Assembly (NCBI GenBank): GCA_036644995.1
Contig: JAVXOZ010000009.1
Span: 3,121-67,120 of the forward strand
DNA from: Clostridiales bacterium
Lineage (GTDB): Bacteria; Bacillota; Dehalobacteriia; UBA7702
DNA length: 64,000 nucleotides
Reading direction: 5' to 3'
Made by a program: the position numbers and the translations under genes. Below, piece by piece: positions 8,402 to 60,493 of the stretch. Every line of letters begins with the position of its first letter. Position 1 is the stretch's first letter. The notes below the pieces were generated by a model. That model did no database searches, was not told where the DNA came from, and saw only the letters and a program-made list of their open reading frames with translations.

Positions 8402-8562
8402 CAGATTGTCAAAAAACATAGTTTTTTGGCAAGATGTCAGGCTGTTAAGAAAGCCTTAGATTCCACAAAACTACCTGAACAGCGGCTGTGCAGTGTACTT
8501 AGATGTACATAAGCAGTGGGAGGGAAGGGATTTTACCCAATATCAGACTTTACCAACAGCCT
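8402..8562 (+). repeat. copy 3 of ~162-bp foldback repeat; flanked by 20-bp palindromic direct duplication 'aagcgattt(cac/tat)aaatcgca' (8382-8401 and 8563-8582)
   Basis: identity to other copies; most diverged copy (internal helix disrupted: ttccacaaaa/ttttacccaa). Confidence 0.8.
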
Positions 8563-8693
8563 AAGCGATTTTATAAATCGCACCTTATCTATTTTAAACG
8601 TTGAAAATAACTGTTAATTAAAAGCTACATATCCCTAAATTATTACTCAATGATATTTTACTTTCGGGATACCGCAACCATTGAGAAAAAGCC

Positions 8694-8899: not shown

Positions 8900-10072
8900 T
8901 TAGTGATGGAAAAGACGCATTTTTGTAAATGCCATTACCATATTATATTTATCCGCAGTTGCAATTACATCGTCATCACGCACGGAACCACCGGCTTCGG
9001 CAATATATTGCACACCGCTTCTTTTTGCTCTTTCAATGTTATCACCAAAGGGGAAGAAGGCATCTGAGCCTAAGGAAACGCCGGTTAAAGTTTCTATCCA
9101 TGCACGTTTTTCTTCTCTGGTAAAAGCTTCGGGTTTTTTTGTGAAAATATTTTCCCATGCGCCATCTGCCAAAACATCCATGTAATCTTCGGAAACATAA
9201 ACATCAATAGCATTATCTCTTTCGGGACGCTTTAAATCATCTCTGAAAGGTAAATTCAATACCTTTTCATTTTGGCGAAGATACCATGTATCTGCCTTAT
9301 TACCTGCTAAGCGTGTGCAATGAACACGTGATTGTTGCCCTGCACCAATACCGATAGCTTGACCATCTTTGGCATAGCACACAGAATTAGACTGGGTATA
9401 TTTTAAAGTTATCAAGGAAAGAATTAAATCTCTCTTGGCATCTTCGGGCAATTCTTTATTGGATGTAACAATATTTTCTAAAAGTTCTTCATCGATTTTA
9501 AAATTATTTCTGCCTTGTTGGAAAGTGATGCCGAAAATGTCTTTGTATTCAACTTCCGCAGGAACATAATTTTCGTCCATTTGTACTATATTATAGCTAC
9601 CTTTTCTTTTAGTTTTTAATATTTCCAAGGCTTTTGCCGAATATGAGGGGGCAATAACCCCATCGGAAACTTCTCTGGCTAAGAATTCCGCAGTCTGCTC
9701 ATCGCATTCATCGGAAAGTGCCACAAAATCGCCGTAAGAGGACATTCTATCCGCACCACGGGCACGAATATAGGCGGTAGCCATGGGGGTTAATTCCACA
9801 CCTTCCACAAAATATACTTTTTGTAAAACATCGGTGAGGGGCACTGCCACTGCTGCTCCCGCAGGGCTAACGTGTTTAAAGGATGTGGCAGCAGGAAGAC
9901 CTGTTGCCTTTTTTAATTCACGCACCAGTTGCCAGCTATTAAAAGCATCTAAAAGGTTGATAAAACCGGGTTTACCGTTTAATACCGTAATAGGTAATTC
10001 GCCGTCTTTCATAAAGACTTTTGCGGGCTTTTGATTAGGGTTACAACCGTACTTTAATTCCATTTCTTTCAT
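8900..10072 (-). CDS. AICAR transformylase-domain protein (PurH C-terminal domain homolog; no MGS/IMP-cyclohydrolase domain)
   Basis: 390 aa; 'YGCNPNQ' equivalent of the PurH 'YGENPHQ' motif; overall AICARFT-like; preceded by ZTP riboswitch candidate. Confidence 0.6.
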   Translation of the reverse strand: MKEMELKYGCNPNQKPAKVFMKDGELPITVLNGKPGFINLLDAFNSWQLVRELKKATGLPAATSFKHVSPAGAAVAVPLTDVLQKVYFVEGVELTPMATAYIRARGADRMSSYGDFVALSDECDEQTAEFLAREVSDGVIAPSYSAKALEILKTKRKGSYNIVQMDENYVPAEVEYKDIFGITFQQGRNNFKIDEELLENIVTSNKELPEDAKRDLILSLITLKYTQSNSVCYAKDGQAIGIGAGQQSRVHCTRLAGNKADTWYLRQNEKVLNLPFRDDLKRPERDNAIDVYVSEDYMDVLADGAWENIFTKKPEAFTREEKRAWIETLTGVSLGSDAFFPFGDNIERAKRSGVQYIAEAGGSVRDDDVIATADKYNMVMAFTKMRLFHH

Positions 10073-10095: not shown

Positions 10096-10195
10096 AAAAA
10101 GAGCCTACCAAAGAAGGCTCCTGCCCAGACGGTCGGCTTTTTGTGCTATACTCCCTGTGGTCAATTCCACTTCCGCCAGTTGTATAACTGCTTTA
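10096..10195 (-). promoter_or_regulatory. ZTP (pfl-motif) riboswitch candidate with terminator expression platform
   Basis: minus strand: 'ACTGGCGgaagtGGAATTGACCACAGGGAG...(linker)...CCGACCGTCTGGGCA' matches conserved ACUGGCG, P2 hairpin+GGGAG and 3' CCGxCCGxCUGGGCA; followed by 'gagccttctttggtaggctc+T5'; the P1 5' strand is not well matched. Confidence 0.55.
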
Positions 10196-22777: not shown

Positions 22778-22802
22778 AAAATATTTGAAGGGCGGTAATA
22801 CT

Positions 22803-24188
22803 ATGACTTACAAAGAACGTGTTGGTGTTTTTGAAGCTTACCATCGTGCAATAACCGGTCCCCGTGTTAGCGAAAGCGAATGGGATAGCGTTATTATTCC
22901 CGGTACACTTACAAAACTCAAAGAAAAATATAATATCAAAATGGACAAAGGCACTGTTGTTCCTACCGATGATACTTTAATTAATAATATATTTAAAGCC
23001 GGTTTGGAAATGTTAACCACTGTTGGTGTTTATTGCATAGATACCGGCAGAGTTATTAAATATACAGAAGATGAAATCTTAACAGCCATCAAAAATACTC
23101 CCAAAGAATTTTATCTTGGTGAAGGCACTGATGCTGTTTTAATGAAAGACAGAAAACATGACTCCGAACGTTTCCCCATTATCCAAGGTGGACCTACCGG
23201 TGCTCCTGTTTCTGAAGAACAATTCTTAAATATGCATGAAGCATATGCCAAAGAACCTTTGGTAGACACCATTGTTAATGGCGTTCTCCAAACATGGCAT
23301 GGTCATGACCCCATTCCTAACACTCCTTATGAAATCGCAGCGGTTCGTTCCGAAGTTCAAATGCTTCGCTTGGCACAAACCAGAGCCGGTCATCCCGGCA
23401 TGGCATTGTAGGGCAGTGAAACTTCACTCTCTGCAGCAGGCGTTATCTGTTCTGACTTCCAAGGCGGAATGCGGCCAACAGACAGCCATGAAGTATCTCA
23501 ATTAAACGAATTGAAAATTGACTTAGCAGCTTTAACTTTCTGCTCTTACTATGTATTAAGTGGTCAAACTATTATGTGCGAACATATGCCCATATATGGC
23601 GGTTACACCGGTGGTCTTGAGGAAACGACTATCAGTGACGTTGCCAGCACGCTTAATGCTTTCGTAATGGCTCAAGGTAATTATGTATTAGACGGTCCCG
23701 TTCATATGCGTTGGGGAATCACCACTGCCAGAGAGGCTTTGGCAGTTGCTGGTCACTGTGCAAGAGCAATCAATGCTAATACAGAACTTATGTTAGCTAA
23801 CCAATATTACACCATGGCAGGTCCCTGTACTGTTATGTGCCTGTTAGAAACAGCTGCACAAGCAATGACAGATACCGCCAGCGGTCGTGAATTACTCTCC
23901 GGTGTTGCCGCCGCTAAAGGTGTTACCACCAACTTTAATACTCCTATGGAAGCCAGATTTATGGGTCAAGTTGCTCGTGCAACTGCCGGTAAAGATCTTT
24001 CAGTAGTTAATCCTATAATTGACTCATTATTGAAAATGTACGAAAAAGATTATAAAACTGCTCCTGTTGGCAAATCATTCGAAGAATGCTATGACCTTAC
24101 TACATTGCAACCTACTGATGAATATATCAGCGTATATGATGAAGCAGCAGAAGTATTAGCAAAGCTTGGTTTAGAATTAGGTAAATAA
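22803..24188 (+). CDS. mtmB: monomethylamine methyltransferase MtmB with in-frame UAG (23409-23411) decoded as pyrrolysine; single gene, not two ORFs
   Basis: ORFs 22785..23411 and 23469..24188 are in the same frame separated by exactly one TAG; the context 'GHPGMAL-UAG-GSETSLSAAG...GGMRPTDSHEVSQLNELKIDL' closely matches Methanosarcina MtmB around Pyl202 ('GRPGMGV-O-GPETSLSAQG...TDSHEVSQLNELKIDL'); UAG is codon 203 from ATG 22803; total about 461 aa, MtmB-sized. Confidence 0.85.
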
Positions 24189-26623: not shown

Positions 26624-26887
26624 ATTGAATTTTAAAACTTTTATAATCTGTTTTCCACAATAACACTGATTTATAATTTCGGTTTTTTTAAGACTCTATT
26701 TTGCACCACAACATTTAGCAACATTTAGTATATCCACTTAATATTGTTGGGCTTTTGTCGGTGCATATAGTTTCCCAACAGCTTATTTTAATATTAAAAT
26801 ATTTTATGCCACTCCCCTTTTCATTACAATACTTTTTCTAAAATAAAACAGAGCAGCTACTCTTTTTTAAATGAAAGTATATAATTT

Positions 26888-26958
26888 AACTTAGATAATT
26901 TCACATAACTTAATTGAGATAATTTCACATAATTTAATTGAAATATTTTCACATATAT
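26888..26958. repeat. three tandem copies of a ~24-bp unit 'ttaattgaRataWtttcacataay'
   Basis: direct tandem repeats in convergent intergenic region between amt and the AraC-family gene. Confidence 0.6.
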
Positions 26959-27081
26959 TTTTTACAAAGTCTTTTTTAATTTATACTATTTAATGTAGAA
27001 AGTATTATAATGCACTAAATAAAAGTGATTACACTCCACGGACTTGGGGAGCGTAATCACTTTTTATCTTCATTTAATTTT

Positions 27082-28350
27082 TTACTCTTTCCATTTGCTG
27101 GGGGAAACCCCTTCGCAACGTTTAAACATTTTGATGAAATAACTTTGGTCATTAAACCCTACACTGCTGGCTATTTGAGCCAAGGGCATATCATCACGTA
27201 AATACTGTTTACTTGCTTCTATTCTCACCTTATTTAGGTGATCCGAATAGGTTTGTCCTGTTTGTTTTTTGATTAAATTACTTAAATAAGTGGGGTTTAA
27301 TGCTACCTCACTTGCCAACTTTTGCAAAGAAATATCCATATAATTTTTGTTAATATATTCAAGTGCCTGAAAAATTATATCATTAACCCGATATTTGCTA
27401 CCATTCCAAAATGCCTGTTGAAAACGGGGCACGGTATTATAAAGAGCCTGATTTAGCTGTTCATTATTTGTTGCAGTTAAAATATCACAAATAGTAACAC
27501 ATTGTTTTCCAAATATAGTTTCCAAGTTTAAATCTCTTTTTTTGGCAATTTGCAATAATGTGTAAAAAAATCTGGCTGCCCTATATTTGCTTTCTTCAAA
27601 AACATTATGCTTATGTATTCTGTCTATAAATTTATACAAAATCATCTCTAAGGCTTTTTGACTCTGGATCAAATTGCCACCGGGCTTTAAAAGTTCTATT
27701 TCTCTTTCTAAAATGAAATAGTCTTGGTTAAAATCCGGATAAATATTTGTGCGGATTTGCTTTTTAAGTTCGTTAATTAAAGTACCTATTTGGTTTTGCT
27801 TTTCATTATAATTAACCGATGTAGATTCTAAACCAGGCACATTTTGAATGGATTTTTGCAAAACATTACTTAACGCCCTAATATGAGAGGTATCTTTCAA
27901 TGGTACATCATTTAATAATTGGTCAATTTCGCTATAATGAGTATTCAAAAGTTCATTTCTGTCTAAAAAATTATTCACTATATACTTATTTGGTTCGTGT
28001 ATTAAAATTGGTCCCGTAGAAGCAAAATAAACATTGTCATCATCTAAAAATACAGGTACGGTGATATTCAGCAAGCCATAAGGGCATAAATAATAATGAG
28101 CGTCTGTGGTTACCAAGGTTTGTTTACAATTACAAACATAATCATGGACACAAACCCCTGTTTTGTCATACTGCTTAATGTAATTACAAATGTCAGCACA
28201 TTCGTAGCAACTGCGGTTGCCTACCTTTTTACCTATTCCATCAAACAAGTAACAATTTACGCTGGTTGCCATTTCATAATCACTGATAGCAGATTTGATT
28301 TCTTTTAAGGCATGATAGTATTCCAACATATTTGAGTCCTCCCCGCTCAA
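27082..28350 (-). CDS. AraC/XylS-family transcriptional regulator with Cys-rich N-terminal sensor domain
   Basis: 422 aa; C-terminal dual HTH 'LASEVALNPTYLSNLIKKQTG...QIASSVGFNDQSYFIKMFKR'; N-terminal domain with CxxC...C-x-C cluster. Confidence 0.75.
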   Translation of the reverse strand: MSGEDSNMLEYYHALKEIKSAISDYEMATSVNCYLFDGIGKKVGNRSCYECADICNYIKQYDKTGVCVHDYVCNCKQTLVTTDAHYYLCPYGLLNITVPVFLDDDNVYFASTGPILIHEPNKYIVNNFLDRNELLNTHYSEIDQLLNDVPLKDTSHIRALSNVLQKSIQNVPGLESTSVNYNEKQNQIGTLINELKKQIRTNIYPDFNQDYFILEREIELLKPGGNLIQSQKALEMILYKFIDRIHKHNVFEESKYRAARFFYTLLQIAKKRDLNLETIFGKQCVTICDILTATNNEQLNQALYNTVPRFQQAFWNGSKYRVNDIIFQALEYINKNYMDISLQKLASEVALNPTYLSNLIKKQTGQTYSDHLNKVRIEASKQYLRDDMPLAQIASSVGFNDQSYFIKMFKRCEGVSPSKWKE

Positions 28351-34309: not shown

Positions 34310-34540
34310 AAAAACACCCTACTTGCACGACCAAGTAAGGTGTTTGATGATTCCATGGAAATCATTACACATTGCCATCGACCGTAACAAAAGTGTAGGT
34401 ACCCCATACTTGGCAGGTCTTCTGGCTCAAAGGGCTTACCCTTCTTACAGCGGCGCGACCGCGCAGGATTCTCACCTGACTTCCCTATTCTCCCGTCCAT
34501 TGACTGAACGAGCACCAAATATGTTCTGTTTGTGAATATG
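34310..34540 (-). promoter_or_regulatory. cobalamin riboswitch upstream of cbiMNQO-cbiK
   Basis: minus strand 'AGGGAAGTCAGGTGAGAATCCTGCGCGGTCGCGCCGCTGTAAGAAGGG' matches the cobalamin-riboswitch core (AGGGAA..GGUGnnAAUCC..GCGG..CGCC-B12 box-like GCCGCUG). Confidence 0.7.
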
Positions 34541-34724
34541 TTAGCACAGCGGTAAATCAATGTCAATATTATTTTTTTATTAAATCCAATATTTTGCCTT
34601 AAAATCCTTGGAAATTCCGCACTTTTACTGGATTTAAAAGATTATCAAAAATATAAAAAATAATACTTGAATTTTTTCAAATATTGTAATATACTATTAC
34701 TTAGTTCTTATACAATTTGAACAA

Positions 34725-34900
34725 GCGGTGCCTTTTGGCATAAAAGAAAAGCAGGCTAAAATCCTGCACTGTCCCAGCAACCGTATTACTGACGAAAAGA
34801 TGTAAACCACTGTTTCTAAGGAAATGGGAAGGTATCTGAGTAGAATGAAGTTAAGTCGGTAGACCTACCGTTTGTAATTTTTCTCCTGGGTAGAGTTTTT
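34725..34900 (+). promoter_or_regulatory. probable second cobalamin riboswitch, divergent, upstream of cobQ-cbi-hem operon
   Basis: 'GGTGCC...AAAAGCAGGCTAAAATCCTGCACTGTCCCAGCAACCG...ACCACTG' contains GGUGCC, AAAAUCC and B12-box-like elements but deviates from the consensus order. Confidence 0.4.
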
Positions 34901-51475: not shown

Positions 51476-52237
51476 ATGAGTAATATAGTAAAAATCGTAG
51501 GTGCAGGCGCAGGAGATCCTGAGCTTATCACCGTTAAAGGCATGAACGCTTTAAAAGAAGCAGATATTGTGATTTATGCAGGTTCTTTGGTTAACCCAGC
51601 CCTTTTGGACTATTGCAAAAAAGACTGCACCATTTATGATAGTGCAGGCATGAATTTAGATGAAGTTATTGAAGTTATTAAAGCCGAATATCCCAAGGGC
51701 AAAAACATTGTGCGTTTACACACAGGCGACCCCTCAATTTACGGTGCTATCCGTGAACAAATGGACATTTTAGATACGGAAAATATTGAATACACCGTAA
51801 TTCCCGGTGTTAGCTCTTTTTGTGCCGCTGCTGCTGCCTTAAAAAAAGAATACGTTTTGCCTGAAGTTAGCCAAACAGTTATTCTCACCCGTATGGAAGG
51901 CCGCACCCCTGTACCGGAAAGAGAAGATATCAGAAACTTGGCAAAAGTAAACGCTACCATGATTATCTTTTTAAGTGTTCACATGATAGAAGATGTTGTG
52001 GAACGCCTTTTGGAAGGTTACGATAAAGAAACACCTTGTGCTGTGGTTTACAAAGCCTCATGGCCTGAAGAAAAGAAGGTTATTGGCACCTTGGAAAATA
52101 TTGCGGAAAAAGTACACGCTGCGGATATTGGCAGAACTGCTTTGATTACCGTTGGTCGTTTCTTGGGCGATGAATACGCTCTCTCCAAATTATACGACAA
52201 AGGCTTTTCCCACGGTTACCGTGAAGCCAAAGAATAA
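51476..52237 (+). CDS. cbiF: cobalt-precorrin-4 C11-methyltransferase
   Basis: 253 aa; 'VGAGAGDPELIT', 'IYAGSLV' typical of CbiF/CobM. Confidence 0.75.
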   Translation: MSNIVKIVGAGAGDPELITVKGMNALKEADIVIYAGSLVNPALLDYCKKDCTIYDSAGMNLDEVIEVIKAEYPKGKNIVRLHTGDPSIYGAIREQMDILDTENIEYTVIPGVSSFCAAAAALKKEYVLPEVSQTVILTRMEGRTPVPEREDIRNLAKVNATMIIFLSVHMIEDVVERLLEGYDKETPCAVVYKASWPEEKKVIGTLENIAEKVHAADIGRTALITVGRFLGDEYALSKLYDKGFSHGYREAKE

Positions 52238-52310
52238 TTAATATCTTAGGTTCTTTTTCAATGATTGTATTTTTCTAAAAATGAAATATATTTCAGTGAT
52301 AATCGAGATG

Positions 52311-52336
52311 TGGCAGTTGTATTTTACAACTGCCAT
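52311..52336 (+). repeat. 26-bp palindrome (tggcagttgtattttacaactgccat), first of three near-identical hairpins bracketing repeat copies 4 and 5
   Basis: perfect 11-bp stem; same sequence family recurs at 52499-52524 and 52687-52712. Confidence 0.8.
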
Positions 52337-52498
52337 CAGATTGTCAAAAAACATAGTTTTTTGGCAAGATGTCAGGCTGTTAAGAAAGACTTAGATTCGG
52401 TAAAACTCCCTGAACAGCGGCTGTGCAGTGTACTTAGATGTACATAAGCAGTCGATGAGAAGGGATTTTACCGAATATCAGACTTTATCCACAGCCTG
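52337..52498 (+). repeat. copy 4 of ~162-bp foldback repeat
   Basis: identity to other copies; internal helix ttcggtaaaa/ttttaccgaa perfect. Confidence 0.85.
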
Positions 52499-52524
52499 GG
52501 CAGTTGCATTTATGCAGCTGCCAT
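52499..52524 (+). repeat. second hairpin (ggcagttgcatttatgcagctgccat) between tandem copies 4 and 5
   Basis: near-palindrome, diverged copy of 52311-52336. Confidence 0.75.
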
Positions 52525-52685
52525 CAGATTGTCAAAAAACATAGTTTTTTGGCAAGATGTCAGGCTGTTAAGAAAGACTTAGATTCGGTAAAACTCCCTG
52601 AACAGCGGCTGTGCAGTGTACCTAAATGTACATAAGCAGTCGATGAGAAGGGATTTTGCCGAATATCAGACTTTATCAACAGCCT
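52525..52685 (+). repeat. copy 5 of ~162-bp foldback repeat (tandem with copy 4)
   Basis: about 97% identical to copy 4. Confidence 0.85.
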
Positions 52686-52686
52686 A

Positions 52687-52722
52687 GTGGCAGTTGTATT
52701 TTGCAACTGCCACATTTTTATG
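52687..52722 (+). terminator. third hairpin (gtggcagttgtattttgcaactgccac) followed by T-run: probable terminator of the cbi-hem operon
   Basis: 11-bp stem + 'atttttat'; about 450 nt downstream of cbiF stop because of the two inserted repeat copies. Confidence 0.55.
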
Positions 52723-53112
52723 GATTTAATTCTGAAATATATGGTAAATTGTAAAATCAAATTGAACGCATAAAAAAATTGCAGCAACCACTTAATAGGT
52801 GATTGCTGCAATTTTATGTAATTTTACCGTTAATAAAAACTCCTGTTATATGTAATTTTACCGCTAATAAGGCATTTGTTAATTGAAAAATTCAAAACAA
52901 ACTGCACAGAAACATATTGAAGTCATTGCATTAAACAAAAGCAATACCTTCAATATGTTTATAGATATAATAAAATTTTCCTACCCATATCACAAACTTA
53001 AAATAAGCTTGGGTAACTTATAATAACAGGTTAACCCACCTTAAACGTTTAGGGTAGGTATATAGACCCACTGCCAAAACTTACAAGGGTTATCCGTTTT
53101 CAACCTATTAAC

Positions 53113-54169: not shown

Positions 54170-54898
54170 CTACACCTCATTTATGGTTTCTTCCTCATCT
54201 TTATTGAGATTTTCCTCCACCTCATCTAATTTATTGAGATTTTCCTCCACCTGCTCCCCGTCCACATGGGGAAACAAAGATATATCATCTTTTTTGTTGT
54301 CAATTTCTGTGCTTTTTTCGGCATTATATAAATCAACAGAATCTTTATCCCTGTCCAATTCTATCACGGGTAAATCCTCCAAAGATTTTAAACCCAAAAG
54401 TTCCAAAAATTTACTGTTGGTTCCATAAAGAATGGGTTTTCCCGGGGTTTCTTTTCTGCCAACTTCATCTACGAAGCCCTTTTCCAAAAGTCCCGATACA
54501 ATGCCATCGGCATTTACCCCACGAATTTCTTCAATTTCCCCACGGGTAATGGGCTGACAATAGGCAATAATAGCCAAGGTTTCCAAGGCTGCATTGCTTA
54601 ATCTTTGTAGTTTTGGCTTATACAACCGCTCCACATAGGGATAATATTGAGGTTTTGTCATAAATTGCCAACCTCCGGCAATCTCCGTTAAGAAAAAACC
54701 TTTGTTTTTATATTCATCTTCCAAAGCCCATAAAATTTCTAAAACAGCTTCTTCTTTTATTTCGGTATATTCTGCTAATTCTCCAACGGTTAGGGGTTCT
54801 CCTGCCACAAAAATCAAGGCTTCCACGGCTTTTTTTATTTCTTCGGAAAATAAGGGTTCCAACACACACACTCCCAACGCAGTTTTATCAAAATCCAA
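54170..54898 (-). CDS. scpB: segregation and condensation protein B
   Basis: tandem winged-helix ScpB domains 'ALIFVAGEPLTVGEL...' ; ends with TAG stop; C-terminal acidic tail contains a 27-bp tandem DNA repeat. Confidence 0.85.
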   Translation of the reverse strand: MDFDKTALGVCVLEPLFSEEIKKAVEALIFVAGEPLTVGELAEYTEIKEEAVLEILWALEDEYKNKGFFLTEIAGGWQFMTKPQYYPYVERLYKPKLQRLSNAALETLAIIAYCQPITRGEIEEIRGVNADGIVSGLLEKGFVDEVGRKETPGKPILYGTNSKFLELLGLKSLEDLPVIELDRDKDSVDLYNAEKSTEIDNKKDDISLFPHVDGEQVEENLNKLDEVEENLNKDEEETINEV

Positions 54899-57547: not shown

Positions 57548-60172
57548 TTAATCGTTATATTTACCTTTTAATAAATTCGCTTCCACATAGCCTAATTCCT
57601 TTTCTTTTGTTGGGAGATTACCTGTGGTTTTAGCACGAATTAAGTCTTCCAAAATTTTAGGGGTCATATTTCGCTGAAATCCCTGAAGATTTTTCAGGTC
57701 TTTGCGTTCACAAAGAATACGGTATTGGAAAAATTTCATAAAAACAGTGCCCATTTCGGTTCTAAATTCTTCATTAGCTTTCAAAAATAAAACTATAACA
57801 ATTTCCGAACTTAAATCCGAAAGTAAATAATACCATTCCACATCGTCCATTTCTTTAAACTCATCGTATATATAACCTTTGGTGTGGTTTAAGGTATAGG
57901 CATTATCTTTATAGGAACGGCGGCCATCTATTTTATCAAAAAATTCATCCAATTCATCCTTGGTAAAATCAACTATCAAAAGTAAAAAATAAACCAAAGG
58001 AATATCCGGCTTATTCTTTAAAAATTTTAAAAATGGAACCTTATCTTCAAACCATTTGCTTAGTTCGCCCAAGGAATAATCAAATTTATGCCCGGGAAAA
58101 ATATATTGCCATAAACCATATTCATTGTATAGCTGCAAAATATCATAGGGATTTTCTTCTTTTAAAGAAATTACCACTTCCTGCCAAATACGACGATAGG
58201 AAAGCTTTTCAAAAACACCATCCTGCACCGCTTTGGCGGCAAACATTTTGGTTTCTTCCTCCAATGTAAATTCATAACGCACAGCAAAACGCAGTGCCCG
58301 CAATAATCTGGTGGGGTCTTCCACAAAGCTTAAATTGTGTAAAACACGCAACTGACGTTTTTCCAAATCTTCTCTGCCGTTATAATAATCTATTAAAATA
58401 CCAATGGTGCTAAAATTTAAGGAAATAGCCATGGCATTAACTGTGAAATCACGGCGGTATAAATCTTGACGCAAGGTGCTGGTTTCCACCTGTGGCATTG
58501 CCGCAGGGTATTCATAAAATTCCGTTCTTGCTGATGCTATATCCAGTTTTAAATAACCGTCTATCACCACATTGGCAGTGCCAAAACGCTCATAAGCCGT
58601 AAGCTGACCATTATACACTTCCGCCACTACCCGAGCAAATTCAATGCCATCACCCTCCACCACAATATCTAAATCAGAAGAAGATGTTTCTAACAGCATA
58701 TCCCTAACCAAGCCACCAACCAAGAAAACTCTGCATCCTTTTCTATCAGCCAAAGAGGCAATTTCCCCTAAAATGCGGTAAGTGTTCTCGGGCAAAGAGT
58801 TTTTTAATTTTTGCAAAACATTACTGTAATCCTGGGAAATAAGTGTAGGTTGGTAAGTGGTTCTGTGACGGGATATTATTTTTTCACCATATAGTAGCTG
58901 TAATAAATCTGTGCGGGATATTATTCCCACCAATTCCTCCCCACGCATCACCGGGAAACGCCCAACATTTTCCTTTAGCATCATAGTTCTGGCTTGTTCC
59001 ACAGGCATAGATTCATCCAATGTTACAATATGGTGGGACATATAACCTTTAACCGGTACTTTACCAAAACCGTGGTATTTGGCTTTTTCCACATCTCGCC
59101 GTGAAATAATGCCGATAACTTTATTATCATCCATCACAGGGTAGCCCGAATGCCCATAACGCATTAAGTATTCATCTACCTCATTAATGGTGGTAGATGA
59201 CTTTATGGTTTTAACCGGGGTGGTCATAATATCCCCCACGGTTAAAGGAGGAGCAATAACGGATTCTAAAGTTTTTTCCAAATAGGCAACAACTTCATCT
59301 AAAGAAATATTATCCGCATCTTTAAGCATGGCACTTGAGGCATGGTCGTGCCCTACACCGCCGTAAAATTTTAAAACTTCACGCACGTTTATTTCCTCGG
59401 CACTGCTTCTGGCAACAATATAAATACGGTTGCCCATACGCACCACGGAAAAAATAGCATCTACAATATGAAAATCTCTTATTTTTCCGGTTATCAGTGC
59501 TAATTCCCCCACAAATTCATCTGTTTGGGTAATCCCAAAAAGCACTTTTTTACCACGGATAGTTTTTATATAGCAATTCGCCATTAAATCATTAAGTAAT
59601 TCTTGTTGTTCCGGGGTATATGCCCTAACAATATAATTGGCAACAACGTTTAAATTAGCGCCCTGTTTTAAAAGCCAAGCCGCAGCTTCCACATCCCTAT
59701 AAGTGGTGCTGGAATAAGAAAGAGAGCCGGTATCTTCATAAATTCCCAAAGCAAAAACCGTTGCCTCCTGAGAATCTATTTTTATGTTATTTTCTCTAAT
59801 CAATTCCACTAATTGAGTAACATTAGCCCCTAATTTTTCATAATGCAGTTCTGCACCTTCTATTTCAGAATCAGAGGGCAAATGATGGTCGTAAATAATA
59901 ACTTTTAAATTTTCATTATCCAAAACCGCAGCAAATTCCTGCAAACGTTTTTTGCTGCGAGTATCCACCATTATTAGGGTATCCACATCTTTTTTATTTT
60001 TGTAATTTTGAATTTCTATGGCTTCTTTATGTAGATTTATAAAATCCAAAACATTATTATCGGCCTTGCCAACGGTAACAAGAGTGGCATCGGGATAGAT
60101 TTTTTTTGCTGCCACCATAGATGCCAAAGCATCAAAATCCAAATTGGGATGACCAATAATTATTTTCATCAA
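57548..60172 (-). CDS. multidomain DHH-DHHA1 phosphoesterase / tandem CBS / poly(A)-polymerase-type nucleotidyltransferase (CCA-adding-enzyme-like) protein
   Basis: 874 aa; N-terminal 'GHPNLDFDALAS' DHH; two CBS motifs; 'VFLVGGLVRDMLL...DLDIVVEGD' PolA head-domain nucleotidyltransferase motif. Confidence 0.7.
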   Translation of the reverse strand: MMKIIIGHPNLDFDALASMVAAKKIYPDATLVTVGKADNNVLDFINLHKEAIEIQNYKNKKDVDTLIMVDTRSKKRLQEFAAVLDNENLKVIIYDHHLPSDSEIEGAELHYEKLGANVTQLVELIRENNIKIDSQEATVFALGIYEDTGSLSYSSTTYRDVEAAAWLLKQGANLNVVANYIVRAYTPEQQELLNDLMANCYIKTIRGKKVLFGITQTDEFVGELALITGKIRDFHIVDAIFSVVRMGNRIYIVARSSAEEINVREVLKFYGGVGHDHASSAMLKDADNISLDEVVAYLEKTLESVIAPPLTVGDIMTTPVKTIKSSTTINEVDEYLMRYGHSGYPVMDDNKVIGIISRRDVEKAKYHGFGKVPVKGYMSHHIVTLDESMPVEQARTMMLKENVGRFPVMRGEELVGIISRTDLLQLLYGEKIISRHRTTYQPTLISQDYSNVLQKLKNSLPENTYRILGEIASLADRKGCRVFLVGGLVRDMLLETSSSDLDIVVEGDGIEFARVVAEVYNGQLTAYERFGTANVVIDGYLKLDIASARTEFYEYPAAMPQVETSTLRQDLYRRDFTVNAMAISLNFSTIGILIDYYNGREDLEKRQLRVLHNLSFVEDPTRLLRALRFAVRYEFTLEEETKMFAAKAVQDGVFEKLSYRRIWQEVVISLKEENPYDILQLYNEYGLWQYIFPGHKFDYSLGELSKWFEDKVPFLKFLKNKPDIPLVYFLLLIVDFTKDELDEFFDKIDGRRSYKDNAYTLNHTKGYIYDEFKEMDDVEWYYLLSDLSSEIVIVLFLKANEEFRTEMGTVFMKFFQYRILCERKDLKNLQGFQRNMTPKILEDLIRAKTTGNLPTKEKELGYVEANLLKGKYND

Positions 60173-60493
60173 AAACTCCTCGCTTTATATAATTAAGTTT
60201 ATCTTAAACAATTAATTAAGTTTATCTTAAACAATGCCAAATACTATACCATAATCACTTTGTAAAGTATTATTATATCAAAAATTAAGGATAAGTTAAA
60301 GGCAAATTTGCATAAATACATCAAAATAACCTAACTTTTCACAAAATAGGACACTTTTACATAAATTACATATAGCATTTTTTCTAAGTTTATATTATAA
60401 TTATGTAGTGATTATGTAATGTTACTAATTTACCCATAATAAAAATCAATCTTTTAGTATATAAAAGTCCATAATGAGGAGAATCCGAATTAT

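Follow-up and report, generated by a model that had tools for sequence, protein, structure and literature searches.

The question raised by the DNA behind cbiF, in a window of 64,000 nucleotides from a Clostridiales bacterium (the whole stretch that was analysed), is how a hairpin at the end of an operon came to be present in three variants, with two copies of a 162-bp repeat lying between them.

Organisation of the region behind cbiF

The gene cbiF (51476-52237, + strand; an ORF named from its homologues and PF00590) encodes precorrin-4 C11-methyltransferase, is the final gene of the cbi/hem operon and ends with a TAA stop at 52237. All the features behind it are read on the + strand. The left arm of a terminator-bearing repeat module of ~110 bp (T-module), with the outer inverted repeat ATATATTTCAG, occupies 52254-52309 and is homologous to 7616-7671. 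Next are hairpin L (52310-52336, GTGGCAGTTGTATTTTACAACTGCCAT, -16.9 kcal/mol), which is the left duplicate of the target palindrome and has no T-run; copy c4 of the repeated element, here called E (52337-52498, CAGATTGTC...CACAGCCTG, 194.8 bits); hairpin M (52499-52524, GGCAGTTGCATTTATGCAGCTGCCAT, -17.5 kcal/mol), the middle palindrome and a divergent allele with compensatory changes; and copy c5 (52525-52686, CAGATTGTC...AACAGCCTA, 198.7 bits). The last hairpin, R (52687-52713, GTGGCAGTTGTATTTTGCAACTGCCAC, -19.5 kcal/mol), is followed by the T-run ATTTTTATGG, both being contained in 52687-52723, and the right arm of the T-module occupies 52714-52746 (outer inverted repeat CTGAAATATAT). Tandem Repeats Finder identified the region as a 188-bp period with 2.1 copies and a score of 734. 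A previous sequence-only reading had given the same order of hairpins, copies and T-run, correct to within 1 nt at every coordinate.

Among the three hairpins only R passed the intrinsic-terminator scoring, because the T-run is present after R alone. The start of R is 377 bp downstream of that of L and the T-run is shifted by ~376 bp, in agreement with the displacement of about 350 bp first proposed. Since L and M have no T-run, cbi transcription probably continues past both, over about 376 nt that form highly structured RNA, and terminates at R.

A paralogous T-module at 7616-7725 (+ strand) contains one uninterrupted hairpin (7672-7699) and a T-run. Without c4, M, c5 and one hairpin, the cbiF site is colinear with this module (78% over 111 bp, E-value 1e-19), which represents the empty site within the window, as a paralogue and not as an orthologue. 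This colinear single-hairpin copy, together with the bracketed copies found elsewhere in the window, supports the earlier proposal that the repeat was inserted into a terminator that already existed with one hairpin, and that the hairpin was duplicated. Relatives with CbiF at 92%, 92%, 89% and 88% identity have a single ordinary terminator and no E there; none is a true orthologous empty site, because the downstream genes differ. Relatives identified by DinB (<=70% identity) keep the synteny, their intergenic DNA being unalignable, and in one of these species it is a (GGATAATA)n microsatellite, not E, at which the contigs break. No occupied-versus-empty polymorphism was seen at any orthologous E site among the relatives compared.

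Copies, targets and fold of the element

E comprises 161-163 bp and was identified by a repeat finder in five copies at four loci of the window, all on the + strand and starting at 4426, 6261, 8402, 52337 and 52525. The copies are 91-97% identical (blastn E-values of 4e-63 to 4e-82 for the others against c5) and their ends are identical, 5'-CAGATTGTC...ACAGCCT(G/A)-3', the base at the 3' terminus varying between A and G. Homology between the loci ends exactly at these termini.

Each locus carries a duplication of its own. Copy c1 (4426-4588, within 4413-4601, +), also found in a conspecific MAG, is flanked by an exact 13-bp duplication of CATTATATTTTAT (4413-4425 and 4589-4601) in an AT-rich site without a stable hairpin (0 kcal/mol), the duplication being centred on no palindrome. 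Copy c2 (6261-6422, within 6239-6444, +) is located in a divergent promoter region between two copies of the 22-bp palindrome AAACAATAGYATGCTATTGTTT (6239-6260 and 6423-6444), and c3 (8402-8563, within 8383-8582, +), the most decayed copy, between two of the 19-bp palindrome AGCGATTTYAYAAATCGCA (8383-8401 and 8564-8582); the hairpins at both loci have no T-run. Including the 27-bp outer pair of c4/c5, the duplications of c1, c2, c3 and c4/c5 match at 13/13, 21/22, 17/19 and 25/27 positions (0-2 mismatches), begin exactly at the ends of E and have a variable length (13, 22, 19 and 27 bp) that is atypical for a MITE. With the other three loci bracketed exactly at the unit ends, like the cbiF locus, the arrangement far exceeds what chance would produce.

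The targets are palindromic at three of the four loci (-6.7 to -19.5 kcal/mol) and the stem-loop is retained on both sides at every hairpin-site copy. The duplicated sequences are unrelated between loci and therefore derive from the target and are not part of E. With the terminal A/G counted within E, the duplications of c2, of c3 and of the outer pair around c4/c5 are centred exactly on the dyad, as a two-fold symmetric attack predicts, in what is a small sample of four loci and five copies.

These boundaries bear on the extremely improbable alternative that E is immobile, a structured small-RNA or 3'-UTR module spread by segmental duplication, in which case the flanking hairpins would be the upstream terminator and the terminator of the module itself. 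Such a module would agree with a strong fold that is partly conserved across species, and with the good terminators formed by R and by the hairpin that follows a relative of E in another genome (E3, L030). Against it, the two hairpins at any one locus are almost the same but bear no relation to those of other loci, the homology stops at the termini of E, c2 is in a divergent promoter region, the hairpins of c2 and c3 are without T-run, and the changes among the five copies break pairs, none being compensatory.

E is built of two parts, a hairpin on the 5' side (nt 5-31) and a foldback of 127 bp, with arms starting CAGGCTGTT, that leaves out the first 35 nt. The fold is very stable (z = -9.8), being 1-15 kcal/mol better on the + strand than on the - strand, with 4-5 G-U pairs on the former and 1-5 on the latter. 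The outer ends form only a weak inverted repeat, with 7/11 positions matching between CAGATTGT and CAGGCTGT, and likewise 7/11 between CAGATTGTCAA and CAGGCTGTTGA. Inside E, at nt 36, a left-end-like sequence agrees with the right end in 14/16 positions, the first 9 perfectly, and with nt 1-16 in 11/16 (shuffle p about 0.05).

Typical copies have stops in the frames, and the six-frame translations share no words with any protein in a collection of 5.8 billion. No copy reached the gathering threshold of the Rfam 15 covariance models, the best sub-threshold matches being chance miRNA/snoRNA. Variation among the five copies is mostly pair-breaking, with zero compensatory changes; selection on RNA structure within this genome was rejected for this lack of covariation, the cross-species case standing apart. 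On the - strand an outward promoter-like sequence, TTGCCA-16-GACAAT, is located at the left end of E and matches at only 9/12 positions, its apparent aim at downstream genes being a trivial result of gene orientation.

The fold and the uneven duplications would also be expected if E were RNA-borne, its structured transcript being reverse-transcribed and integrated by target priming at nicks beside hairpins, which is very unlikely. Target-primed synthesis at nicks leads to target duplications of variable length, as in the range of 13 to 27 bp; the stability of the fold, the additional G-U pairs of the + strand, the A/G variation at the 3'-terminal base and the compensatory changes across species are also in its favour. 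On the other side, the Pfam scan of the ORFs identified no reverse transcriptase in the window, 5' truncations and 3' tails are absent, no convincing promoter was found on the + strand upstream of or inside E, and target-primed mechanisms are asymmetric whereas the duplications are centred on dyads. We know of no bacterial precedent for such an integration.

Relatives of the element, mode of insertion and origin of the doublet

Outside the window, conspecific short-read contigs end within E at c2, c3 and c4, as expected for a high-copy repeat. Divergent relatives of E adjoin hairpins in three related uncultured Clostridiales. In the first (E4, L044:10-25, - strand) the 5' end CAGATTGTCGAAAAAC is located directly against a hairpin with a 10-bp stem, at a contig end; in the second (E2, L020:20371-20502) the element follows a 13-bp GC-rich hairpin, also at a contig end, its exact 5' boundary being uncertain; the third is E3, with the terminator mentioned above. 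The copies of E4 and E2 are truncated by the contig ends, at L044:1 and L020:20502. The subterminal 5' hairpin is kept in E and E4, and the long hairpin is kept between E and E2 through about 10 compensatory changes in a model-fitted alignment. This conservation across species suggests a structure needed for mobility or co-opted. The T-run of L044 is on the opposite side of the element compared with cbiF, so that there is no fixed orientation to the terminator.

An exact scan with the 20-mer CAGATTGTCAAAAAACATAG gave three matches each in the genome and metagenome contig collections, all of them chance matches that cover 20-23 nt only, with no E-like continuation, and no E was found by a viral contig scan or by plasmid and phage BLAST. 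A full-length element with the termini of E was not found in the genome, metagenome, viral, plasmid or phage searches. Within the window, the Pfam scan identified no transposase, reverse transcriptase or integrase among the 20 ORFs, and no cas gene among the ORFs scanned.

E is probably a MITE-like, non-autonomous mobile element that inserts into hairpin or cruciform targets and duplicates them. It would be mobilised in trans by an enzyme not encoded within the window, which would read the palindrome, probably as an extruded hairpin or cruciform, and not the target sequence. Both ends of E would be joined to both strands where the stem-loops have their 5' feet, or <=1 nt away, in a symmetrical arrangement around the dyad, and gap repair would then leave one whole copy of the palindrome per side. 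The length of the duplication would be set by the structure (19, 22 and 27 bp), with 13 bp where a stable hairpin is absent. At cbiF the target would have been the hairpin that serves as terminator in a small, repeated module, which now has two copies of E and a third hairpin between them. Several features speak against the MITE-like reading: the strand-biased folding and the compensatory changes between E and E2 are not needed by a plain double-stranded DNA transposon, the outer repeat is weak, the c1 target has no hairpin and IS1272, an insertion sequence known to strike hairpins, deletes its targets.

In an unlikely alternative E moves single-stranded, through an HUH/IS200-IS605-like or undescribed enzyme that would insert it at the 3' foot of a hairpin on replication-fork ssDNA, as happens with group IIC introns and some IS, and the conserved fold would be the substrate of the enzyme. 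The 5' end of every copy abuts a hairpin 3' foot (at 0-1 nt for E and E4), the five copies are on one strand, the + strand folds better, and both the subterminal hairpin of E and E4 and the long hairpin of E2 have been preserved. However, known single-strand transposons and group IIC introns make no target duplication, and known systems require a conserved tetra-/pentanucleotide or an exon-binding match whereas the bases just before E vary (TTTAT, TGTTT, TCGCA and GCCAT). Moreover, dyad-symmetric duplications are not predicted by a one-strand mechanism, the two-sided p for 5/5 copies on one strand is only 0.06 and the orientation of L044 relative to its T-run is opposite.

Two successive insertions in situ had been proposed for the cbiF doublet, of which insertion and duplication of the hairpin are supported and the succession in situ is doubtful, in view of the divergence of M. 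L and R have 2 differences and M has 5 with each of them in about 27 positions, including a compensatory change from a T:A to a C:G pair and an extra base, and the loop of M (ATTTATGCAG) is the same as in the paralogue hairpin at 7672-7699. The copies on either side of M, c4 and c5, have 4/161 differences (5/162 with the terminal base), and the divergence of M compared with theirs gives a Fisher p of 0.004. Successive duplication predicts that M should be at least as near to L or R as L is to R; M differs more, so import fits better. From its sequence, M may have been imported from another locus, and the route may have been an E-hairpin-E dimer moved whole or recombination of a circular molecule, made of E and a hairpin, with an E already in place.

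A possible but rather doubtful origin, for the doublet only, is a single insertion giving L-E-R followed by local duplication of E plus hairpin and no second transposition, the two copies of the hairpin having allowed slippage or unequal crossing-over. In accord with it, c4 and c5 are the closest pair (5 differences, compared with 11-24 in other pairs), share at column 122 a base absent from the other copies and form an array with a period of exactly 188 bp. Recombination between L and R would nevertheless give a chimeric M, and M is unlike both at 5 of about 27 positions; columns 98, 101 and 136 also match c4 to c3, and c5 to c1 and c2.

Comparison with known systems and significance

Group IIC introns insert beside intrinsic-terminator hairpins and recognise structure and not sequence, although they are ribozymes of >600 nt, usually with a reverse-transcriptase ORF, and insert on one side without duplicating the hairpin. 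E was rejected as such an intron, having 162 nt, a CAGAUUG start, no GUGYG...AY boundaries and no Rfam match at E <= 10. PATE derived from IS200/IS605 insert 3' of a conserved tetra-/pentanucleotide, make no duplication and have similar subterminal hairpins at their ends; this identity was rejected because in E the upstream bases differ, duplications are present and the 5' hairpin is unlike the foldback foot. Integron attC cassettes and Xer/dif modules were also rejected, as their defining features are absent and the hairpins beside E change from locus to locus. The DDE transposase of IS1634-type elements reportedly gives long target duplications, variable in length as in E; these are autonomous elements of about 1.9 kb for which a link to palindromic targets is not known.

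In CRISPR spacer integration and casposons, a repeat, which is often palindromic, becomes duplicated through staggered attacks by Cas1 at its two borders; casposon duplications are fixed at 14-15 bp, and CRISPR repeats have a fixed sequence beside a leader, with unique spacers of 30-40 bp (PMC5137440). The repeat-insert-repeat arrangement resembles L-E-M-E-R, but the 'repeats' flanking E change from locus to locus, with one and the same 162-bp insert throughout. A CRISPR array was rejected, as both 'spacers' are copies of a single 162-bp unit found elsewhere between other palindromes and no cas gene was seen in the window. Bacterial MITEs and intergenic repeats (Correia, ERIC, RUP, bcr1) are non-coding, multi-copy intergenic elements of 100-200 bp that fold into a long, imperfect hairpin, lie between target duplications and are often co-transcribed with neighbour genes, the duplications of classical MITEs being fixed at 2-9 bp at short motifs (PMC3184786, PMC10969869). 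E, at 161-163 bp well below the limit of about 300 bp taken for a MITE, shares with them its small size, non-coding and dispersed nature, sharp identical boundaries and flanking duplications, and differs in duplications of 13-27 bp set by target structure and in its weak outer terminal repeat.

In its target behaviour, the closest known analogue of E is IS1272/TnSha1, closer than the group IIC introns and CRISPR of the sequence-only reading, which serve as analogies only. IS1272/TnSha1 insert, without sequence specificity, at hairpins of 21-85 bp formed by inverted repeats or terminators, often just downstream of genes, and the same hairpin is struck repeatedly by independent insertions (PMC5678879, PMC4923244). 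IS1272 (IS1182 family, staphylococci) is an autonomous IS of 1.9 kb that deletes or replaces the stem-loop with no target duplication, as TnSha1 also removes it, IS1272L carries a tandem duplication of its left end (PMC5678879, PMC4923244), and another IS1182 member makes 4-bp repeats (PMC3281130). In the model published for IS1272/TnSha1, attack at the cruciform 5' feet would duplicate the entire stem-loop (PMC5678879 Fig 13 pathway b; PMC4923244). E likewise hits hairpins without consensus at 3/4 loci, c1 being the exception, and its additional left-end-like sequence (nt 36) is comparable to the duplicated left end of IS1272L; in contrast, it is 162 bp, non-coding and duplicates the full palindrome.

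There is some chance, though a low one, that E was placed by an undescribed type of integrase, specific for structure and independent of sequence, that joins it to both feet of an extruded cruciform. Such an enzyme could, with similar reserve, be a duplicating mirror image of the stem-loop replacement by IS1272, convergent with the repeat duplication mediated by Cas1. The conserved single-strand fold of E might then be its substrate, E and its targets being recognised by shape alone, which is also somewhat improbable.

Hairpin-recognising transposition is, to our knowledge, documented for very few elements, and in those the hairpin is destroyed. If the MITE-like reading is true, E would show in nature the consequence of the attack on cruciform 5' feet that has been predicted, whatever the length or sequence of the palindrome. 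It would also be a simple bacterial route to multiply terminators and to form arrays of alternating hairpins and inserts, with a formal resemblance to those of CRISPR or integrons. In this uncultured Clostridiales lineage E breaks short-read assemblies, and at the 3' end of the cobalamin-biosynthesis operon it adds hundreds of nt of structured RNA, which may alter mRNA stability or termination.

Hairpins and repeats behind cbiF

The array behind cbiF begins 73 nt downstream of the end of the gene (52237) and comprises three hairpins alternating with two copies of E, a non-coding repeat of 161-163 bp. The left hairpin L (52310-52336, fold -16.9 kcal/mol) is followed by the 162-bp copy c4 (52337-52498), the middle hairpin M (52499-52524, -17.5 kcal/mol), a second 162-bp unit, c5 (52525-52686), and the right hairpin R (52687-52713, -19.5 kcal/mol), which is followed by ATTTTTATGG; all lie on the + strand. 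The array was described by Tandem Repeats Finder with a period of 188 bp, 2.1 copies and a score of 734, and the order and coordinates of its parts in the sequence-only reading were borne out by direct reading of the sequence. The T-run is found only after R, the sole intrinsic-terminator call of the three; the bases directly 3' of L and of M are CAGATTG, with no T-run. Transcription of the cbi genes probably continues through both E copies as far as R, in which case the cbi/hem mRNA would carry an extra, very stably folded stretch of about 376 nt at its 3' end.

The surroundings of the hairpin are one copy of the T-module, a repeat of about 110 bp in which an outer inverted repeat (ATATATTTCAG...CTGAAATAT) encloses a terminator hairpin. 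Its paralogue at 7616-7725 is uninterrupted, with a single hairpin (7672-7699) and a T-run. When c4, M, c5 and one hairpin were removed in silico, the reconstructed empty cbiF site was colinear with this paralogue (78% over 111 bp, E 1e-19). This colinearity is the strongest evidence for an ancestral single hairpin that was duplicated on the arrival of E; together with the duplications bracketing the repeats, it upholds the earlier claim of an insertion into the terminator hairpin. Relatives with 88-92% identical CbiF present one ordinary terminator, followed by genes unlike those of the window, and E is absent from them within 20 kb of cbiF; none of them provides an orthologous empty site.

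The T-module is a second small repeat family, identified in the window at 7616-7725 and at 52254-52336 plus 52714-52746. Its outer inverted repeat is 11-13 bp long and the nested foldback reaches -25 and -35 kcal/mol; the module may be mobile or duplicated in its own right, carrying its terminator with it. A treble-clef zinc-ribbon gene (PF13451/PF23477) is tandemly duplicated at 6651-6950 and 7088-7387 (89% over 300 bp), and both copies have a terminator of their own; relatives carry a single copy there. Immediately to the right of a bidirectional terminator (about 52775-52810) lie two 25-bp direct repeats, 92% identical (52812-52836 and 52846-52870, TTWTATGTAATTTTACCGYTAATAA), overlapping two - strand promoter-like matches aimed at the E array.

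Other short repeats are a perfect 23-bp tandem duplication (60190-60235) upstream of a gene whose end is at 60172, a 23-bp sequence present in exact copies spaced by 30 bp within a coding region (54200-54252), and a 24-bp unit present 3.3 times (26881-26960) just downstream of a PocR/AraC regulator gene (27082-28350, - strand). Two divergent cobalamin riboswitches (34395-34534, - strand, and 34709-34886, + strand) share one intergenic region and presumably control divergent transporter-like genes and the cbi operon. A ZTP (pfl) riboswitch (10116-10193, - strand) is located upstream of an AICARFT/IMPCHase (purH-like) gene (8900-10072), the classical arrangement. Rfam places a pyrrolysine insertion element, PYLIS_1, at 23409-23508 (74.5 bits), between two neighbouring ORFs (22785-23411 and 23469-24188); in this bacterial (Clostridiales) genome it suggests UAG readthrough within a gene for monomethylamine methyltransferase.

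Element E and its target duplications

Five copies of E were identified in the window, all on the + strand: c1 (4426-4588), c2 (6261-6422), c3 (8402-8563), c4 and c5. The first four are 91-97% identical to c5, and pairwise differences range from 5 to 24 positions. The 5' end is CAGATTGTCAAAAAAC in all five, the 3' end is ACAGCCT plus one A or G, and homology between loci ceases exactly at these ends. No Rfam family matches E, even at E <= 10, nor were matches found in plasmid and phage records or viral contigs, and the protein collection represents no coding potential of E.

E folds as two hairpins, a short one at the 5' end (nt 5-31) and a long imperfect one (nt 37-161), with a + strand energy of -69.9 kcal/mol (z = -9.8) and a weaker opposite strand (-56.1 kcal/mol). 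The long hairpin forms a foldback of 127 bp with arms that start with CAGGCTGTT and match at the first 9 of 9 positions and at 14 of 16 overall; the true 5' end, CAGATTGTC, bears a weak likeness to the arm start (11/16, shuffle p about 0.05). Compensatory changes are absent among the five window copies, where most variation breaks pairs, especially in c3. On the - strand, the E model gives 43-75 bits to a target hairpin followed by the reverse-complemented foldback, so the architecture of E (short hairpin, then foldback) mimics a foldback beside a captured target hairpin. As a speculation, this mimicry may hint at the origin of the 5' extension.

The copies are bracketed by target duplications: CATTATATTTTAT at c1 (13 bp, 13/13 identical), AAACAATAGYATGCTATTGTTT at c2 (22 bp, 21/22), AGCGATTTYAYAAATCGCA at c3 (19 bp, 17/19) and GTGGCAGTTGTATTTTRCAACTGCCAY as the outer pair of c4 and c5 (27 bp, 25/27). 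These sequences are unrelated between loci and are therefore a property of the targets, not of E. They are palindromic at three of the four loci (-6.7 to -19.5 kcal/mol), the c1 target having no stable fold. With the terminal A/G counted within E, direct reading places the duplications of c2, c3 and c4/c5 exactly on the dyad axis, extending to at most 1 nt from the stem feet.

Origin of the c4/c5 doublet

Either successive insertions into one hairpin or unequal crossing-over between L and R should leave M at least as similar to L or R as these are to each other. There are 2 differences between L and R, and 5 in about 27 positions between M and each of them, including a compensatory T:A to C:G change and an extra base; the M loop, ATTTATGCAG, is also found in the paralogue hairpin at 7672-7699. 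In contrast, only 4 of 161 positions distinguish c4 from c5, and 5 of 162 with the terminal base (Fisher p = 0.004). The hairpin duplication by insertion is supported, and the two successive steps in situ proposed with it are doubtful, M being too divergent. Crossing-over agrees with c4 and c5 being mutual closest relatives with one unique base in common, but is made doubtful by the divergence of M and by three sites where c4 agrees with c3, and c5 with c1 and c2.

We think, from very few sites, that L and R are the duplication of a single event and that M derives from a different copy of the hairpin module. M could have been imported in an E-hairpin-E dimer transferred as a composite. By a second route, a circle of E and one hairpin would be excised by recombination between the two hairpin copies of a site and would then recombine into a resident E. 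Alternatively, M may have undergone accelerated change, such as templated mutation within the palindrome.

Spread among relatives and proposed mode of insertion

The host, an uncultured "Clostridiales bacterium", is known through MAGs. In conspecific short-read assemblies all cbiF contigs end in or just before c4, most dinB contigs end in or near c1 and in c2, and a 43.8-kb contig has the size expected for the span from c3 to c4. Only c1, the most divergent copy, was assembled through, in one dinB contig (L029, 99.4% identical to the window). Such breaks are typical of a repeat present in many copies; none of these assemblies showed an occupied-versus-empty polymorphism. Ten assemblies of a related species (L031-L040) all break in a (GGATAATA)n microsatellite about 65 nt past the dinB stop, the position equivalent to c1.

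Three divergent relatives of E were identified in related uncultured Clostridiales. E2 (L020, 20371-20502, at a contig end; nhmmer E 2e-5, covariance model 22 bits, E 0.003) immediately follows a 13-bp GC-rich hairpin. E3 (L030, about 8047-8290, - strand) has a CAGCCTA end followed by a terminator hairpin. E4, at the start of contig L044, adjoins with its 5' end, CAGATTGTCGAAAAACTCCAGTTTT, a 10-bp-stem hairpin whose T-run is on the side opposite to the cbiF case. In L030 an exact 10-bp direct repeat (TAAACAAAGG, - strand; 8013-8022 and 8341-8350) flanks a 318-bp segment with E3 and its terminator hairpin, which may represent the conventional target duplication belonging to a larger relative, or a coincidence.

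Although its sequence differs, E2 retains the long hairpin: on the model-fitted alignment 15 pairs are identical, 2 carry a change on one side, 10 have both bases replaced yet still pair, and 3 no longer pair. This compensation is suggestive but not proof, because a fitted alignment is biased towards the structure. These cross-species changes, the stronger + strand fold and the 5' hairpin conserved in E and E4 fit poorly with a plain double-stranded DNA MITE, and leave single-strand DNA and RNA-based mechanisms as minority rivals.

The precise ends of E and its dyad-centred duplications, whose length follows that of the palindrome, in targets without common sequence, point to an enzyme attacking the folded target symmetrically. 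A cruciform would bring the two feet side by side whatever the stem length. Joining of the element at the 5' feet, followed by gap repair, would place a full stem-loop on either side of it, a result that the IS1272 model shows as pathway b (PMC5678879, Fig 13). IS1272 and TnSha1 likewise prefer terminators just downstream of genes, without target consensus and hitting the same hairpin repeatedly; however, their own attack falls on the other pair of feet or inside the stem and removes the hairpin (PMC5678879, PMC4923244), whereas E duplicates it. A Pfam scan of 20 window ORFs revealed no transposase, integrase or reverse transcriptase; the ORFs with matches are housekeeping genes, so the enzyme would have to be supplied in trans from outside the window. 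The description that fits E best is a new family of MITE-like elements whose target duplications are set by structure; transposition into hairpins is itself already known.
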